Origin: a virus
Lineage: Duplodnaviria > Heunggongvirae > Uroviricota > Caudoviricetes
Strand: one strand, 5' to 3'
DNA: 9,170 bases
IMG/VR virus record: IMGVR_UViG_2554235184_000006
The notes beneath the pieces were generated by a model. That model saw only the letters and a list, made by a program, of their open reading frames with translations. It did no database searches and was not told the DNA's origin. Numbering within the stretch: the first letter of the stretch is position 1; each line of letters starts with the position of its first letter. A program made the position numbers and the translations under genes. Below are positions 1,730 to 8,480 of this stretch, one piece after another.

Positions 1730-2411
1730 CCAGTATTTACAGTTTGTTCGTGAGCAACTCATGATTGCCACTGCAGATCTCAGTGGGTCGACAAAATGCC
1801 AGCTGGAAGCCTGGCAGGAAAATGCCCTGTTCGATACAGGGCGTTACAGACGCAAAAAAATTCGTTACCGCGATGAGGTAACCGGAAAAATGATCACGCG
1901 GGATAATCCCCCGATCCAGGGTAAACAATCACTGGCGAAAGGCTCATCAATTGCGCTGGTCAGTCCTGTTGAGTTTGCAACATCATCGTGGCGGCGTGCT
2001 GTTCTGGAACTGGAAGAACATCAGAAGGCGTGGTTGTTGTGGTGTTATGGCGGAAACATTTGCTGGGAGCATCAGATCGCGATAACGCAGTGGGGGTGGA
2101 GTGAATTTAAAACTCAGTCCGGCTCCAGAAAAATTGCAGTGAAAACGCTGGAGCGTGTGAAGAAGTTGATCTGGCTGGCGGCACAGGATGTCAGAGGATG
2201 GGTTACCGGGTGTGAGGTCTACCAGAGACAGGAGCTTGCCAGACTGTGTGGAGTTAAGCCTGATAACTGGAGCCATAATTATGCGAACTACTGGCGTGAG
2301 ATGTGCGATATTTTTAAGCGCCTCGATAGAGAATCCTTGATTTGCTCCGTGAAAATAAGAGCGCAACAAAAAGCGACCTTTTCACGACGAGATATTGCAA
2401 AAGTCAATTAA
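1722..2411 (+). CDS. Q: Late-gene antitermination protein Q (phage 21/82-type), about 229 aa
   Basis: ATG at 1722 overlaps the rusA stop (TAA 1727-1729), indicating translational coupling; the ORF track's GTG at 1716 is a less likely start. Sits directly upstream of a promoter-like region, intrinsic terminators and the lysis cassette. N-terminus MNNQYLQFVREQL matches my recollection of QuuQ-type Q proteins. Family assignment not verified. Confidence 0.7.
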   Translation: MNNQYLQFVREQLMIATADLSGSTKCQLEAWQENALFDTGRYRRKKIRYRDEVTGKMITRDNPPIQGKQSLAKGSSIALVSPVEFATSSWRRAVLELEEHQKAWLLWCYGGNICWEHQIAITQWGWSEFKTQSGSRKIAVKTLERVKKLIWLAAQDVRGWVTGCEVYQRQELARLCGVKPDNWSHNYANYWREMCDIFKRLDRESLICSVKIRAQQKATFSRRDIAKVN

Positions 2412-2435
2412 ATCGCGTATGTTTCGTATAAATCT
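2395..2435 (+). promoter_or_regulatory. Candidate late promoter (PR'-like) with possible Q-utilisation region
   Basis: TTGCAA (2395-2400), 17-bp spacer, TATGTT (2418-2423); a second -10-like TATAAAT at 2427-2433 could act as a sigma70 pause element as in lambda PR'. Sequence-only prediction. Confidence 0.25.
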
Positions 2436-2472
2436 GATATTTTGCCGATTTTGTACGTGATGGCAAAGTAAG

Positions 2473-2500
2473 AAAAAACCACCGCCAGGTGGTTTTTTTT
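2473..2500 (+). terminator. Rho-independent terminator (candidate tR')
   Basis: AAAAAACCACC (2473-2483), loop GCCA, GGTGGTTTTTT then 8 T in total (2493-2500). A-tract/T-tract symmetry suggests it could work in both directions. About 62 nt after the Q stop. Confidence 0.6.
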
Positions 2501-2623
2501 ATGTCCGAAAATCGCGTCAGTACAGTAAACGCGCTGGTGGTTGCGAATACGGGTCTTTCAGCTTGCCGGCTTTTTCGACAAGAGTTATTGGTATGTCACG
2601 TTAACCGGAAAAGGGAAAAAGAC

Positions 2624-2821
2624 ATGCTAAAACAGCAGGATATGACAGAAGCCGCCAGAGTGGTGTTTAATGAATTAAGCGTTACCGACCCGGCGACAGT
2701 CAGGGAGATTGCACAGAATACTTACCTTTCACGCGAACGCTGCCAGTTAATACTGACCCAGCTTGTTATGGCGGGTCTGGCAGACTATCAGTTTGGTTGT
2801 TACAGACACCTTCAGTCCTGA
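2624..2821 (+). CDS. Small winged-helix protein (PapI/FaeA-like), 65 aa
   Basis: ATG 2624 with AAGGGA RBS (2611-2616). Segment TVREIAQNTYLSRERCQLILTQLVMAGLA resembles the recognition-helix region of PapI/FaeA-type regulators. The track ORF 2489..2821 starts with GTG inside the terminator T-tract and has no RBS, so the shorter form is preferred. Confidence 0.45.
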   Translation: MLKQQDMTEAARVVFNELSVTDPATVREIAQNTYLSRERCQLILTQLVMAGLADYQFGCYRHLQS

Positions 2822-2835
2822 AGGCTTTTTTATTT
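2809..2835 (+). terminator. Rho-independent terminator overlapping the stop codon of the small wHTH gene
   Basis: CCTTC (2809-2813) pairs with GAAGG (2820-2824), followed by TTTTTTATTT (2826-2835). Short stem, so moderate confidence. Confidence 0.45.
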
Positions 2836-3134
2836 GTGGTAAATGGGCGGCTGGTGGGTGTGGTGGTTGTTGCTTTCCCGTTGCTGAAAAAGAAAACGCC
2901 AGACTGTTAGCCGGGTATCAGTTAGCGGGAGAAATTTTTAAATACTTCACAATTCAGGCGGTTGACTGTTGTCTGGTTTGCGGGGAGTTTGTTAAAAGAA
3001 ACTGGCATGGTGAATCCCCCTGTGCGGAGGGGCAATCAGCGAGTAGGTATATGGGATAATCGCGGATTCAGGTGCTGGTACTGAATTCACCGGGAGGCAC
3101 CCGGCACCATGCAATGGCACATAGCGCCACTCTC

Positions 3135-4498: not shown

Positions 4499-4502
4499 AG
4501 TG

Positions 4503-5393
4503 ATGAATAAAAAATATGAACTGGTTGTTAAGGGGATAAATAATTACGGGGATAAGGTTACTGTTACTGTGAAGTCGGAAGGTGACGGGCAAGCGTCGCT
4601 GTTGTTGCCAGATGTGGCGATTAGTCTTGACCGTACTGAAGGTGCCACGCTGGAGTTTTACGAAGCTGAGGCGAAAAAGCAGGCGAAGCAGTTTTTCATG
4701 GATGTTGCTGCCGGGTTATGTGAATGGAACGAACCGTTGCCGGAAAAGCGCCCCGTAATTTTAGAGGCGCAGGATGTGTTGATAACCTACAAAGGAAAGC
4801 TACCGGGAAGAATTACTTGTTCTCTGAAGATGCCGCCGTCAACACTGCGGTCAGAAAAAGATGATGTTGAATCACGTATTGAAAAACTGGAGAGCTACGT
4901 CGTTGAGCTGAATAAGAAATGGTCGATATTGGTGCCTTCTGGCGATGAAAAGCAGTTTGCTGCGTTTGACGATTATTGTCGGAAAGTGATGAGCAGAAAT
5001 CTCGCAGAGTGTTTCAGTATTCATAATGATAATTTCAGTGACCCGGAATGGGAGTGTAACCGGCCATCCTTTGTTGTATCCGGTGATGCTGGGAAAATAA
5101 CCATCTCAGAAAATGGGAAAGTAACACCTCCATCGCACCAGCACAGTGAGGAGCTCATTGAATTTGCCATTGATTACCTGAAGAACAATAAAAAGCAGGG
5201 GCTGATGAAGCGCGTTGGCCGTTGCATGGGATATCTTCAGGTAGCCGCTGAGATTGAAGCGCTGGCCAGTGGTGCTGATAAGGATGCAATTGTGCGGGAG
5301 GCTCTTCTTCGTGATTTTAATACTCCACCCTTTAAAAAAGTGCCGGCTTACTGGCTTCATCCGGGGCTGACTTATCTTAAAGTGCGTATTTAG
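4503..5393 (+). CDS. Hypothetical hydrophilic protein inserted between holin and endolysin, 296 aa
   Basis: ATG 4503, 5 nt after the holin stop (TAA 4496-4498), with GGGGAGAG RBS (4487-4494); stop TAG 5391-5393. Long uninterrupted ORF with no TM segment or signal peptide and a K/E-rich composition. No family recognised. Confidence 0.7.
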   Translation: MNKKYELVVKGINNYGDKVTVTVKSEGDGQASLLLPDVAISLDRTEGATLEFYEAEAKKQAKQFFMDVAAGLCEWNEPLPEKRPVILEAQDVLITYKGKLPGRITCSLKMPPSTLRSEKDDVESRIEKLESYVVELNKKWSILVPSGDEKQFAAFDDYCRKVMSRNLAECFSIHNDNFSDPEWECNRPSFVVSGDAGKITISENGKVTPPSHQHSEELIEFAIDYLKNNKKQGLMKRVGRCMGYLQVAAEIEALASGADKDAIVREALLRDFNTPPFKKVPAYWLHPGLTYLKVRI

Positions 5394-5963: not shown

Positions 5964-6119
5964 GCAGAATATTTTGCTGAAAAATGAGGAATGGCCACGC
6001 GGGCGGATAACACGAAATCCTGCGAACTGGCGAAACGTAAGTGAATAAAAGTAAAAACCCCGTTTGTTGGCACCAAGCGAGGTTTTGTGTTTCTGACCTT
6101 GAGTAAGGCAAGGGAGAAC

Positions 6120-6302
6120 ATGGCGAAGTGTAAACGAATTCTGTTGAGGTTGACTATGAAAAATGGCCTTGAACTGAAAGCGCCTGTAACTGATGACATC
6201 AGCAGAGCACTGGCTTTTGCCATTAAGTGGGTGGCGGTCGGTGTTGCTGTGTCCCCGATGCTGTATGGGCTGGCAAAACTGGTCATTGCGTTGAAATCGT
6301 GA
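6120..6302 (+). CDS. Small protein with C-terminal hydrophobic segment, 60 aa (alternative start 6156)
   Basis: ATG 6120 with AGGGAGA 2-3 nt upstream (short spacing); an alternative ATG at 6156 has GAGG at 6146-6149. C-terminal [27 protein letters not shown] is TM-like. Stop TGA 6300-6302 overlaps the strong RBS of the next ORF. Family unknown. Confidence 0.4.
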
Positions 6303-6316
6303 AGGGAGGATTAAGC

Positions 6317-6448
6317 ATGTCAGACAAACTCATAACGCTGGCGAAGATCCTCTGTGTAATTGTCGGCATTTCATTTTCACTAATGCTGGTTGCTCTTTTT
6401 CTTTCCATGGCCTGGATGATGTTGTCTTCGTCGGGGTTGCTGGGGTGA
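6317..6448 (+). CDS. Small hydrophobic membrane peptide, 43 aa
   Basis: ATG 6317 with strong RBS GGGAGGA (6304-6310). Translation [43 protein letters not shown] is almost entirely one long hydrophobic stretch. Stop TGA 6446-6448 overlaps the alternative Rz GTG start. Confidence 0.5.
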
Positions 6449-6456
6449 ACATAAAC

Positions 6457-6918
6457 CGAATGCTTTCCGCGTTTATCGTTATTCTGCTGGTGGCCTGTGG
6501 TGCGCTGTGGATGGCAACAGACCATTACCGTGATAACGCGATTACCTACAAAGCGCAGCGCGATAACAAAGCCAGTGAACTGAAGCTGGCGAACGCAACC
6601 ATTACTGATATGCAGGTGCGCCAGCGCGATGTTGCTGCGCTCGATGCAAAATACTCGAGGGAATTAGCCGATGCGAGAGCTGAAAATGAAACTCTTCGCG
6701 CTGACGTTGCCGCTGGTCGTAAGCGCCTGCGGATCAACGCCACCTGTCCAGGCTCCGTGCGTGAAGCCCCCACCACCTCCGGCGTGGATAATGCAACCGG
6801 CCCCCAACTGGCAGACACCGTTACACGGGATTATTTCACCCTCAGAGAGCGGCTGATGACGATGCACAAGCAACTGGAAGGGGCACAGGACTATATCCGC
6901 ACTCAGTGCCTGAAATAA
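6457..6918 (+). CDS. Rz: Rz i-spanin (inner-membrane spanin subunit), 153 aa
   Basis: Translation ...[71 protein letters not shown]...[19 protein letters not shown] is nearly collinear with lambda Rz as I remember it. N-terminal TMD present. Start is ATG 6457 or in-frame GTG 6445. Confidence 0.85.
6671..6856 (+). CDS. Rz1: Rz1 o-spanin (outer-membrane lipoprotein), embedded in Rz in the +1 frame, 61 aa
   Basis: ATG 6671 with GAGGGA RBS (6657-6662). Lipobox-like VVSAC followed by the proline-rich [14 protein letters not shown], matching lambda Rz1. Fully nested inside Rz, the classic spanin arrangement. Confidence 0.85.
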
Positions 6919-7228
6919 GTTTTGTTGATGCGCCGTATCGTCGCTATATTCCCTCATTAACAGAGACCGCAGCCCGACAGGGAGACTCCTCTGCGCGAGT
7001 GTGCGGGGATAATTAAAAACGATGCACACCGGGTTTTTACCGCGTTAATGATTCGCGGGTTTATCCCGGTGCGATGGTGGAAGAAACAGGAAGCTGTATT
7101 ACAGAAAGTGCTACTACTGTATCCCGATGCGATGTATGTAATGTGAGTCAGATAATGGCACAGGATGTGGTGATGTGGCAGTCTGGAACACAGGATATAT
7201 TGTCAGAATAAGACCCGTAGGAATAAAA

Positions 7229-7555
7229 ATGAAAAGACGCCTTTTACTACTTTTTCTGTTATCTGTCCTGGCAGTGGGATGCTCGCAGCAAAAAGCTGAT
7301 GAGCCCCGGCAATTAGTGACGGTGTATCCACGATATCCGGAATATGCTGCAGCAAATTATATCAAGGGGCTGGTTGAGGTTAAGTTCGATATTGGTGCTG
7401 ATGGGACTGTGACACGGATCGTTTTTCTCCGCTCAGAGCCTCATAATTTGTTTCGTGATGAAGTGGTGAAGGCCATGGCGAAATGGCGATTTGAAAAGAA
7501 TCGCCCCTGTCAGGGAGTGAAGAGACAATTTATCTTTACGCCGTCACGTCCTTGA
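7229..7555 (+). CDS. Lipoprotein with TonB C-terminal-like domain, 108 aa
   Basis: ATG 7229 with AGGAA RBS (7219-7223). Signal peptide MKRRLLLLFLLSVLAVGC with a relaxed lipobox. The mature part YPRYPEYAAANYIKGLVEVKFDIGADGTVTRIVFLRSEPHNLFRDEVVKAMAKWRFEK fits the TonB_C pattern (compare E. coli TonB GQVKVKFDVTPDGRV...FEREVKNAMRRWRYEP). The track ORF 7175..7555 is an N-terminal extension without RBS. Confidence 0.7.
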   Translation: MKRRLLLLFLLSVLAVGCSQQKADEPRQLVTVYPRYPEYAAANYIKGLVEVKFDIGADGTVTRIVFLRSEPHNLFRDEVVKAMAKWRFEKNRPCQGVKRQFIFTPSRP

Positions 7556-7647: not shown

Positions 7648-7670
7648 GGCGTTGTATGCCACACAACGCC
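7648..7670. terminator. Hairpin between convergent genes (candidate bidirectional terminator)
   Basis: GGCGTTGT (7648-7655), loop ATGCCAC, ACAACGCC (7663-7670), followed on the + strand by a T-rich run. Lies between the 3' ends of the + lipoprotein gene and the - ORF. Confidence 0.4.
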
Positions 7671-7677
7671 TCACTGT

Positions 7678-7857
7678 TCATTTCTTCTTTTTCTCTGGTG
7701 GAACCCGATGAATAAGAGTTGCACTGGTTTCCGATGAGATGGCGATATACTCGGGCAAAGTATGCTGGCAGTTTTCCAACTGGTCAAAAATACCTGCTCT
7801 CGTCTGTTGCAATGCCTGCAGCATGCGGCGGCAATGCGCCTTGCTTTTACTAACCAT
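7678..7857 (-). CDS. Small hypothetical protein, 59 aa
   Basis: Minus-strand ATG (7855-7857) with strong RBS GAGGAAGGAAAG immediately upstream. The longer track ORF 7678..8031 has no RBS at its start and overlaps the upstream gene. C-terminal KKKK tail. Family unknown. Confidence 0.4.
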   Translation of the reverse strand: MVSKSKAHCRRMLQALQQTRAGIFDQLENCQHTLPEYIAISSETSATLIHRVPPEKKKK

Positions 7858-7918
7858 CTTTCCTTCCTCTATCAGTCGCTGCGTGAACTCATCATGTAAT
7901 ACCAGGTAAATGCGGATG

Positions 7919-8170
7919 TTATCGGTTTTGGCTACGCAGCATAGTACAAAACGGACAGGTGCATCCCGGGACGGGGGAGGCGTCACATGTCCCTGTGATG
8001 GTTGTTCCGGGTAATGCACTGTGTGGGGCATAAAAATGTCCGATAATTTTACTTTCTACCGCAGTTAGTTGATTCGTTGGTCCTGGTAGCACATTGGGCG
8101 AGGATTTAAATGCCAGGCAACTGAAGGATGATGTTGCAAGGGAGATAGCGAGAATATTTCTGATTTTCAT
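7919..8170 (-). CDS. Small secreted Cys-rich protein, 83 aa precursor
   Basis: Minus-strand ATG (8168-8170) with AGAGG about 9 nt upstream. N-terminus MKIRNILAISLATSSFSCLA looks like a Sec signal peptide. Mature region has a Cys cluster TGTCDASPVPGCTCPFC. The track ORF 7919..8239 extends 23 codons further upstream without RBS. Confidence 0.5.
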   Translation of the reverse strand: MKIRNILAISLATSSFSCLAFKSSPNVLPGPTNQLTAVESKIIGHFYAPHSALPGTTITGTCDASPVPGCTCPFCTMLRSQNR

Positions 8171-8289
8171 TTGATGATGCCTCTGTGTGAAATGACGGTA
8201 AACGACGCACTTGTGCCGGCACATAATAGCAAGCACCATAATAGATCAGATTCGATTCTTGCTGTAAGTGATAATTATTCTCGTTTTCG

Positions 8290-8480
8290 GGTCCTTTCCG
8301 TCGATCCAACAGGTTACGGGGCGGCGACCTCGCGGGTTTTCGCTATTTATGAAAATTTTCCGGGGAAAATCATGTCGGTACTTCTCGAACATAACTATTT
8401 GTTTTTTCTAATATCGAATCCGTAAAAGGTCCGACATGAAAACGCCTAAAAAAGTCATTTTCGGGCACTTTCATGTCGGC
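8290..8480. other. cos site: cosQ-like segment, cosN with 12-nt cohesive end GGGCGGCGACCT at 8319-8330, and cosB-like region
   Basis: 8291-8365 matches the lambda genome junction as I remember it (...CAGGTTACG / GGGCGGCGACCTCGCGGGTTTTCGCTATTTATGAAAATTTTCCGG). Downstream the sequence diverges from lambda cosB and instead carries a TCATGTCGG repeat. Located immediately upstream of Nu1. Confidence 0.85.
8370..8479. repeat. Three copies of TCATGTCGG (direct, inverted, direct): candidate terminase small-subunit R sites of cosB
   Basis: TCATGTCGG at 8370-8378, its reverse complement CCGACATGA at 8431-8439, and TCATGTCGG again at 8471-8479, with an AT-rich possible IHF-bending region between the first two. 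This mirrors the lambda R3 / R2 (inverted) / R1 layout. Confidence 0.5.

Follow-up and report, generated by a model that had tools for sequence, protein, structure and literature searches.

A prophage lipoprotein built from a bare TonB C-terminal domain: a candidate outer-membrane decoy for TonB-dependent import

What does a lambdoid phage gain from a lipoprotein gene, close to the right end of its genome, that encodes little besides TonB's C-terminal domain? The question is raised by the gene at positions 7229-7555 of a 9,170 nucleotide (nt) stretch of Caudoviricetes DNA (IMG/VR virus record IMGVR_UViG_2554235184_000006). This whole stretch, referred to below as the window, comes from a lambdoid prophage and covers the end that carries its late genes. 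We propose, tentatively, that the product of the gene (the TonB-C gene) is an unpowered TonB decoy, tethered to the outer membrane, that blocks TonB-dependent import, a reading that we rate as a serious possibility and not as a probability, and as the best supported of those weighed. The gene and the parts of its product are as follows.

7229-7555 (including the stop codon), plus strand: coding sequence of the TonB-C-only lipoprotein precursor, 108 amino acids (aa), taken from the list of open reading frames (ORFs), with an ATG start and a TGA stop
7219-7222, plus strand: ribosome-binding site AGGA, 6 nt 5' of the ATG; the phage 21 record marks the same site as the ribosome-binding site of CPT_21_73
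7229-7279, plus strand: signal peptide, residues 1-17 (MKRRLLLLFLLSVLAVG), as read from the sequence
7268-7282, plus strand: lipobox L-A-V-G-C, in which Cys18 (7280-7282) is the predicted lipidated residue 1 of the mature protein, with Ser at +2
7283-7303, plus strand: linker SQQKADE, residues 19-25, between the lipid anchor and the domain, unconserved in the family comparison
7304-7540, plus strand: TonB C-terminal domain, residues 26-104, placed by Pfam, TIGRFAM, PDB-chain alignment and AlphaFold2/Foldseek

The precursor begins with MKRRLLLLFLLSVLAVGC, followed by SQQ, and combines three basic residues, a 12-residue hydrophobic core and the lipobox. LAVGC agrees with what we take to be the PROSITE PS00013 pattern. 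The basic and hydrophobic N-terminal segment is kept in all aligned relatives, Gly17-Cys18 is invariant across 13 relatives down to 37% identity (alignment A1), and the lipobox Cys is retained in 12 of the 13 sequences of a second alignment (A3). Under the +2 sorting rule, Ser after the lipobox Cys predicts the outer membrane; because the +2 residue is Ser and not Asp, outer-membrane sorting is expected, and the gene product is predicted to be a lipidated, outer-membrane-located lipoprotein.

Residues 33-99 match Pfam TonB_C (PF03544; 49.2 bits, where 24.6 are required; E=7.3e-13), the sole Pfam match of the gene product, and residues 34-104 match TIGR01352 with 47.4 bits against a cut-off of 27.1 (E=1.8e-12). 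Residues 23-103 align with E. coli TonB 150-230 at 41% identity over 81 residues with zero gaps; the domain proper (residues 26-104) corresponds to TonB 153-231 and ends near TonB 235, the last four TonB residues being absent. An AlphaFold2 model, for which 13 relatives served as input, reached a predicted local distance difference test score (pLDDT) of at least 94 over residues 31-100; the block of residues 21-30, around the linker, had a mean pLDDT of 80, against at least 94 for later blocks. The best Foldseek matches of this model in the PDB were all TonB C-terminal domains (1u07, 2gsk_B and 2grx_C), with a root-mean-square deviation (rmsd) of 0.8-1.2 Å and a target template-modelling (TM) score of 0.88-0.92, and they include TonB from the BtuB:TonB complex (2gsk_B; rmsd 1.0 Å, target TM-score 0.92). 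The top 11 were TonB or FusB C-terminal domains, most at an rmsd of 0.8-1.6 Å, and the PDB matches of the model were TonB and TolA domains. A structural search of BFVD with the model returned nothing at E <=0.001.

A TonB-type N-terminal membrane anchor, the ExbB/ExbD-coupling segment with its His20 motif, is absent from the protein, whose N-terminus is a lipoprotein signal peptide without His. The proline-rich spacer that spans the periplasm is absent too, only seven residues separating Cys18 from the domain. Against the full-length TonB equivalog NF008084 the protein scored 69 bits, with a cut-off of 315, and covered only model positions 156-240. By anchor, spacer and full-length score, the gene product is not an energy transducer of the TonB type. 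An earlier reading of the stretch from its letters alone, here called the sequence-only reading, had described a 108-aa lipoprotein with a TonB-C-like mature part, and the Pfam and TIGR01352 matches and the lipobox bear that description out. It was equally right that the protein has neither a proline-rich spacer nor an energy-transducing anchor, given the 7-residue linker and the score of 69 against 315 bits, and the AlphaFold check that it had proposed found the TonB_C fold, about 1 Å from solved TonB C-terminal domains.

The assignment of a TonB-C domain is already public. At 100% identity the gene product equals both phage 21 gp73, which its depositors named 'TonB C-terminal domain protein', and RefSeq WP_000830178.1 ('TonB family protein'), and the bare observation is therefore already known. 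The genome announcement of phage 21 does not discuss the gene. In the literature searchable here, what appears to be undescribed is the existence of a distinct, selected family of exported TonB-C-only proteins; the same holds for the Fur control predicted for this family, for its association with genes for bacteriocins and exclusion, and for the parallel TolA-C-only lipoproteins.

The gene is common. It was present in 1617 of 5426 complete E. coli genomes (~30%), including UTI89, ATCC 25922 and O157:H7 strains, and the exact protein was found in 51,003 index blocks of an assembly collection. There are two main alleles, A (the window copy) and B (Stx1a phages, JLK-2012), which are 72% identical. 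Between them the nonsynonymous divergence (dN) is 0.18 and the synonymous divergence (dS) 1.46, a dN/dS of 0.12 (0.11 for the TonB domain alone), and seven nucleotide variants of allele A carry synonymous changes only. A Klebsiella phage version with 41% identity keeps the signal peptide, the lipobox Gly-Cys and the domain. The gene is under strong purifying selection: it is maintained, and is neither decaying nor a 'TonB fragment'.

An exhaustive profile search returned 2795 proteins at E <=0.001, and many of the closest matches are proteins of 100-135 aa with a signal peptide, usually a lipobox, and otherwise only the TonB domain. In a neighbour-joining tree, the TonB-C-only members from Enterobacterales form a clade separate from genuine enterobacterial TonB C-terminal domains. 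The core common to the family and TonB comprises, in TonB numbering, P153, P161, Y163, P164, G174, G186, P198, F202, W213, R214, E216, P220 and F230; the family signature has Tyr in place of R166, Asn in place of L170 and Ser in place of A196, together with the motif SEPxHLFD. Family members occur in three settings. The first is just after the lysis cassette in prophages that are unrelated to each other and reside in E. coli, Klebsiella, Salmonella and Serratia; the identity there is 37-47%. The second is plasmids (94 records), and the third is chromosomes, among ordinary genes; in Serratia grimesii the gene lies between a CxxCxxCC-domain gene (probable ycgN) and dsbB.

The upstream regions of the relatives point to regulation by iron. 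Palindromes resembling the Fur box stand immediately upstream of the relatives' start codons, scoring 17/19 for the chromosomal copy of Serratia grimesii, 16/19 for both Erwinia typographi and a Serratia prophage, and 15-16/19 for Klebsiella sp. and Raoultella. Salmonella prophage relatives score 15-16/19, some of them with a perfect 15/15 core TGATAAT[T/C]ATTATCA (TGATAATnATTATCA), and Klebsiella phage and plasmid relatives score 12-14/19; such scores are reached by ~1 in 10,000 19-mers in the examined loci. In the 1.73 Mb examined there were 27 perfect Fur cores against 0.006 expected, and 12 of the 27 closely precede a TonB-C-only gene. From its upstream sequences the family is predicted to be iron-repressed, like tonB and the receptors, and the boxes therefore predict co-expression with the receptors.

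Several relatives sit beside bacteriocin or exclusion genes. On Klebsiella IncF plasmids, the gene for a 111-aa TonB-C lipoprotein is followed by an 'Exc2 family lipoprotein' gene, and the locus converges on an orphan cloacin-immunity gene with an rRNase toxin stump. A seemingly second Klebsiella plasmid arrangement (L128) was dropped, as that locus is 99.7% identical to L109 and the gene calls alone differ. In Serratia, the gene for a periplasmic TonB-C-only protein of 119 aa precedes a colicin E1-type immunity gene by 67 nt and runs in the same direction, and the gene for a pore-forming colicin is convergent; the trio forms a 2.6-kb module, 85% identical, found on a conjugative plasmid and on chromosomes whose flanks otherwise differ. 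The slot by the Serratia TonB-C gene holds either the colicin and immunity pair or a gene for a 786-aa SIR2_2 protein (L116 2940-5300, minus strand; L118 5428-7510), and with such alternating contents it resembles a small, variable islet for competition or defence.

The K. pneumoniae plasmid p44-3, a 10,060-bp ColRNAI bacteriocin plasmid, carries the gene for a lipoprotein of 123 aa with a TolA C-terminal domain (lipobox LLTAC; PF06519, E=2e-24). It shares 4 nt with the gene for a periplasmic TonB-C-only protein (121 aa; PF03544, E=9e-11), and the two form an apparent operon, divergent from a cloacin/E3-type bacteriocin, immunity and lysis operon. Neither a Fur nor a LexA box was found upstream of the pair, the sole LexA box belonging to the bacteriocin operon. 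Genes of the TolA-C-only kind are not confined to p44-3. Similar ones occur on 748 plasmid records, annotated only as 'TolA'; the lambdoid phage mEp460 has a 142-aa TolA-C-only lipoprotein gene between Q and the lysis genes; and a Klebsiella IncF/IncR plasmid encodes a TolA-C lipoprotein annotated at 171 aa, with the lipobox after an internal Met. The TolA-C lipoprotein loci are:

L207 (NZ_CP025464.1), 2115-2848, minus strand: TolA-C lipoprotein locus
L112, 1529-2044: TolA-C lipoprotein locus
L208, 3989-4417: TolA-C lipoprotein locus

We infer that the TonB and TolA C-terminal domains have in common, beyond a related fold, that colicins and phages hijack both as import hubs. The occurrence of exported TonB-C and TolA-C domains, without their energy-coupling parts, on bacteriocin plasmids and prophages is the strongest indirect argument for import blocking.

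In the mechanism that we propose for the window gene, a 7-residue tether would hold a complete TonB C-terminal domain at the periplasmic face of the outer membrane. Because the transmembrane anchor and the proline-rich rod are absent, there would be no coupling to ExbB/ExbD and no pulling. The free edge of the third beta-strand (beta-3) would capture the TonB boxes of TonB-dependent receptors and likewise those of group B colicins threading through the receptors, and real TonB would thereby be kept off both; the tether would presumably bring the domain to the place at which TonB boxes emerge, and with them the N-termini of incoming group B colicins. The carrier cell is predicted to resist phages and colicins that depend on TonB, and its uptake of siderophores and B12 to be dampened somewhat.

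Published work offers precedents for the separate steps. TonB-box recognition proceeds by beta-strand addition to beta-3, and secondary structure matters more than side chains (PMC11658791). Passages of PMC9841981 that cite Howard 2001 state that an overexpressed periplasmic TonB domain inhibits iron import via TonB-dependent transporters and that TonB is scarce relative to receptors. Llp and Cor are outer-membrane lipoproteins that block FhuA from the periplasmic side (bioRxiv 10.64898/2026.03.26.714494). From the present analysis, the points in favour of a decoy are the purifying selection, the prevalence of the gene, the fold, the conserved lipobox, the recurrent position after the lysis cassette, the bacteriocin loci and the Fur boxes of the relatives. 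The sequence-only reading had hypothesized that such a module binds TonB boxes and would thereby exclude T1, phi80 and colicins; this candidate role gains indirect support from the inhibition of iron import by periplasmic TonB domain, from the precedent of Llp and Cor, from the bacteriocin, exclusion and TolA-C neighbours of relatives, and from the Fur boxes, which tie the family to the regulon of iron and receptors.

Other observations weigh against a decoy. The best Fur-box candidate for the window copy scored 11/19 and lies 166 nt upstream, so that the copy does not belong to the Fur regulon on this evidence, and the best sigma-70-like promoter on the plus strand scored 8/12. The gene is on the strand of the Q-dependent late operon and, because it has no recognisable promoter or Fur box and lies on that strand, expression late in lytic growth is the default expectation; the window copy may be made only then, and not in lysogens. 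The receptor of phage 21 is LamB, which leaves no room for self-exclusion, and any exclusion would therefore be aimed at other phages and at colicins. A general block of TonB should cost the cell iron and B12. At the position of TonB R166, 95% of the family has Tyr, and the positions of R158 and Q160 are variable, so that these three residues of TonB, which are implicated in receptor contacts, are not kept. The chromosomal relatives with Fur boxes, flanked by core genes, suggest a physiological and not an anti-phage role. Some Serratia genomes retain the TonB-C gene with a SIR2 gene where others have the colicin pair; moreover, the Serratia colicin carries a ColA_N segment and, because we take ColA_N to be Tol-type, the association does not point cleanly to TonB. 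PADLOC gave no match for the gene product, and a full-text literature search found no functional study of the gene. The same Serratia colicin has an uncertain TonB-box-like DSMTV at residues 18-22, in one protein with the ColA_N segment.

We also entertained a more general proposal, which is conjectural and, taken whole, rather unlikely: that prophages, plasmids and bacteriocin islands of Enterobacterales share a defence by mimicry of the import machinery. Exported bare TonB or TolA C-terminal domains, usually lipid-anchored and often iron-regulated, would intercept the TonB boxes or Tol-binding segments of colicins and phages and block entry at the outer membrane independently of the receptor, besides the classical immunity proteins. 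The window gene would be the representative of E. coli lambdoid phages.

The observations on regulation can also be read without any exclusion function. The gene could be an iron-physiology modulator under Fur control, which tunes TonB-dependent transport when receptors are derepressed and serves the fitness of the lysogen; it might hold the TonB boxes of idle receptors and so spare scarce TonB for loaded ones, or bind another periplasmic partner, as FusB binds ferredoxin. The strong Fur boxes of chromosomal members amid housekeeping genes (17/19 in Serratia grimesii, 15-16/19 in Raoultella and Klebsiella sp.) speak for such a role, as does the separate clade, whose own conserved residues suggest a settled function of its own, and a structure has been solved of the TonB-like FusB C-terminal domain bound to its substrate protein (9hi3). 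We know of no mechanism by which an unpowered TonB domain would speed transport. Against the modulator stand the loss of the Fur box in the window copy and the plasmid and bacteriocin contexts with a paired TolA domain, which it explains with difficulty; the sole experimental precedent, in the passages of PMC9841981 concerned, is inhibition. We consider this alternative unlikely, though likelier than the rivals that follow.

The domain might instead act on TonB itself or on the cell wall and not on TonB boxes. Isolated TonB C-terminal fragments crystallise as dimers, and 1u07 and 1ihr are among the matches of the model; the crystal dimers are, however, reported to be absent in vivo (PMC3005593). 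Capture of TonB would lead to the same outcome as a decoy, the loss of TonB function, and is no better supported, and we regard a target of this kind as improbable.

A role in lysis was suggested by the position of the gene, and its weighing depends on the neighbourhood, in which two features are central.

6460-6918, plus strand: Rz i-spanin gene with embedded Rz1 o-spanin gene (6686-6856); Pfam Phage_lysis E=2e-47, Rz1 E=3e-20
8319-8330, plus strand: lambda-type cohesive-end site (cos) GGGCGGCGACCT; a unique exact match, and the linear phage 21 genome ends precisely there

The window is 99.9% identical to an E. coli chromosome, by whose annotation it contains DUF968-domain, RusA and Q antiterminator genes. 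Its further gene content runs from an S21-type pinholin gene through a DUF1327 ORF, a phage lysozyme gene, whose product has an N-terminus resembling that of a signal-arrest-release (SAR) endolysin, and two small ORFs to Rz/Rz1 and the TonB-C gene, after which come convergent minus-strand ORFs, cos and a Nu1-type small terminase gene. Between ~6935 and cos, the sequence hardly differs from that of phage 21's right end, and the TonB-C gene lies within the last 1.1 kb of that end. The sequence-only reading had placed the gene directly after Rz/Rz1, at the position that bor holds in lambda. Neither placement survived: the gene starts 310 nt past Rz (gap 6919-7228), and in phage 21, as in many related prophages, this gap contains bor. 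The two genes coexist there, so that the TonB-C gene stands beside bor and not in its place. The modules next to the gene vary among related phages, with bor present or absent and lysis genes of differing types, and the region of the gene has a GC content of 45-47%, against 54-58% for Rz and 53% for the Nu1-type small terminase gene. By presence/absence polymorphism and atypical composition, the gene has the marks of a moron.

As a lysis accessory, the product would be a late protein that aids or times disruption of the outer membrane. The gene has a full-length match (E=5e-43) to PHROG 1267, which is labelled 'Rz-like spanin', and its prophage copies always follow closely on the genes for holin, endolysin and spanins, on the strand of the late operon. 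Yet the window already contains an Rz/Rz1 spanin pair that is complete without the TonB-C gene. Genuine o-spanins are short and proline-rich, whereas this product is a folded TonB domain for which Pfam returned no Rz1 match. Relatives on plasmids and chromosomes have no lysis genes nearby, and their Fur boxes argue for expression outside lytic growth. We regard a lysis function as very unlikely, and a reading of the gene as an Rz1-like o-spanin was rejected, the true Rz1 being at 6686-6856 inside Rz and the TonB-C gene 310 nt beyond Rz. PHROG 1267, filed in the lysis category, corresponds full length to the TonB-C lipoprotein family, and its label is probably an annotation error that is spreading to phage genome annotations.

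That the gene is a functionless remnant of a captured tonB, as record names such as 'TonB fragment' and 'partial tonB-like' and the truncated and frameshifted copies P0002, P0003, P0032 and P0035 might suggest, is hardly credible given a dN/dS of 0.12 across saturated synonymous divergence with only synonymous polymorphism in allele A, a signal peptide and lipobox in place of the TonB N-terminus that are conserved down to 37% identity, and a clade of its own away from enterobacterial TonB.

The non-coding DNA around the gene holds three further features.

6945-7110 (165 nt), no strand assigned: non-coding block, in which alleles A and B share more than 90% identity as judged by eye, against ~73% for coding sequences
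7013-7072, minus strand: long hairpin with a U-run, terminator-like, within the conserved block; folding z-score -4.2 (minus strand) or -2.1 (plus strand)
7648-7670, no strand assigned: GC-rich hairpin between the TonB-C gene and the convergent ORF; fold z-scores -2.4 and -2.6

The block at 6945-7110 may be regulatory; an Rfam search of the flanking non-coding DNA gave no match. At the position homologous to the Fur boxes of the relatives, allele B has a degenerate palindrome (13/19), half of which has been removed from allele A by a 13-nt deletion. No convincing LexA box was seen for the window copy. The hairpin at 7648-7670 is a possible weak bidirectional terminator, and went undetected in a simple scan for terminators. 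An antisense promoter-like site lies within the TonB-C coding sequence (7356-7383, minus strand; TTAACC-16-TATAAT with TG, and TTCACA-16-TATAAT in allele B). Judged by these motifs, the site and the hairpin at 7013-7072 could together yield an antisense RNA of ~330 nt over the 5' end of the gene, and the TATAAT-like element may merely reflect the AAT-TAT-AT codons for Asn-Tyr-Ile. An upstream ORF at 7074-7211 (phage 21 gp72) was rejected as a conserved gene, on account of frame-breaking indels between alleles A and B.

Fur-box-like palindromes also occur nearer to cos, at 8264-8288 (overlapping, 15/19 and 14/19), ~30-55 nt left of cosN, and at 8150-8168. Allele-B prophages with a lambda-type cos have a perfect TGATAATCATTATCA core at the same near-cosN position (L078 5815-5829). 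This palindrome, upstream of the minus-strand ORFs, could mark an iron-regulated leftward promoter or a packaging-related site.

Some neighbouring ORFs deserve a record of their own. The DUF1327 (YdfR-family) ORF of 297 aa (4500-5393, plus strand) stands between the S21-type pinholin and lysozyme genes, which are adjacent in phage 21; it matches PHROG 1085 over its full length and appears as a truncated pseudogene in the annotation of the 99.9%-identical E. coli chromosome. Between the lysozyme gene and Rz, where phage 21 has nothing, lie the small plus-strand ORFs 6087-6302 (PHROG 1115) and 6227-6448 (PHROG 4906), the product of the latter looking membrane-embedded. The ORF at 7678-8031 (minus strand) is convergent with the TonB-C gene, and a match to PHROG 4843 (E=3e-46) covers the final 59 residues of its product (7678-7857); RefSeq calls a 59-aa version, and allele-B phages carry a YlcI/YnfO-family gene at the equivalent position. 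A putative, uncalled ORF of 83 aa (7919-8170, minus strand) has a plausible signal peptide MKIRNILAISLATSSFSCLA and a C-terminal cluster of four Cys CDASPVPGCTCPFC; neither Pfam nor PHROG gave a match for it, and it was found only in the seven allele-A phage records, at ~99% identity.

Among characterized proteins, the closest likeness is to the C-terminal domain of E. coli TonB (~150-239; PDB 1U07, 1XX3, 2GSK, 2GRX), with an rmsd of the fold of ~1 Å and the YP motif, glycines and aromatics kept. The gene product differs from TonB in having no transmembrane anchor, His20-type motif or proline-rich rod, in its predicted tethering to the outer and not the inner membrane, and in the replacement of R166 by Tyr, besides the missing last four residues. 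In HasB, FusB and Vibrio TonB2, too, the TonB C-terminal domain has diverged and its specificity for partners has changed (PDB matches 2m2k, 7zc8, 9hi3 and 2k9k). Unlike the gene product, they are full-length, inner-membrane-anchored and energy-coupled.

The functional model for a decoy is provided by artificial periplasmic TonB fragments, which likewise present the periplasmic domain without the energy-coupling anchor, as passages of PMC9841981 describe. Those fragments are soluble, overexpressed laboratory constructs, whereas the window gene is natural, predicted to be lipid-anchored, and diverged. Some of the inhibitory TonB fragments of Howard, Herrmann, Stratilo and Braun in 2001 were reportedly longer than the bare domain.

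Llp of T5 and Cor of phi80, HK022, N15 and mEp167 resemble the gene product as small phage-encoded lipoproteins of the outer-membrane inner leaflet that act periplasmically on a TonB-dependent receptor (bioRxiv 10.64898/2026.03.26.714494). Pfam, PDB and BFVD searches, which involved no direct comparison with an Llp or Cor model, detected no relationship to them. Llp and Cor are FhuA-specific and allosteric, whereas a TonB-domain decoy would be generic for TonB boxes, and the gene would represent an outer-membrane-lipoprotein exclusion built from a host transducer domain and not from the Llp/Cor fold. The exported TolA C-terminal-domain proteins of p44-3, the Klebsiella IncF/IncR plasmid and mEp460 share the plan of signal peptide, lipobox and bare C-terminal domain, but carry PF06519 and not TonB_C; no account of their function came to light, though no literature search was aimed at them. 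Lambda Bor/Iss is similar as a small lipoprotein gene between Rz and cos in lambdoid phages; there is no sequence relationship, and bor is on the opposite strand.

If the gene product should prove not to be a decoy, a very common and strongly conserved gene, with relatives predicted to be Fur-regulated, still awaits a function. The presence of the gene in the classical phage 21 makes for easy genetics, and the hypothesis is directly testable. If the decoy reading is true, sensitivity to TonB-dependent phages, colicins and microcins is altered by a prophage gene in ~30% of complete E. coli genomes; siderophore-conjugated antibiotics could be affected too, and iron and B12 uptake could shift, with a bearing on the host range of therapeutic phages, on bacteriocin ecology and on Trojan-horse drugs. 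A receptor-independent class, with a parallel TolA version, would then be added to the exclusion systems of phages and plasmids.

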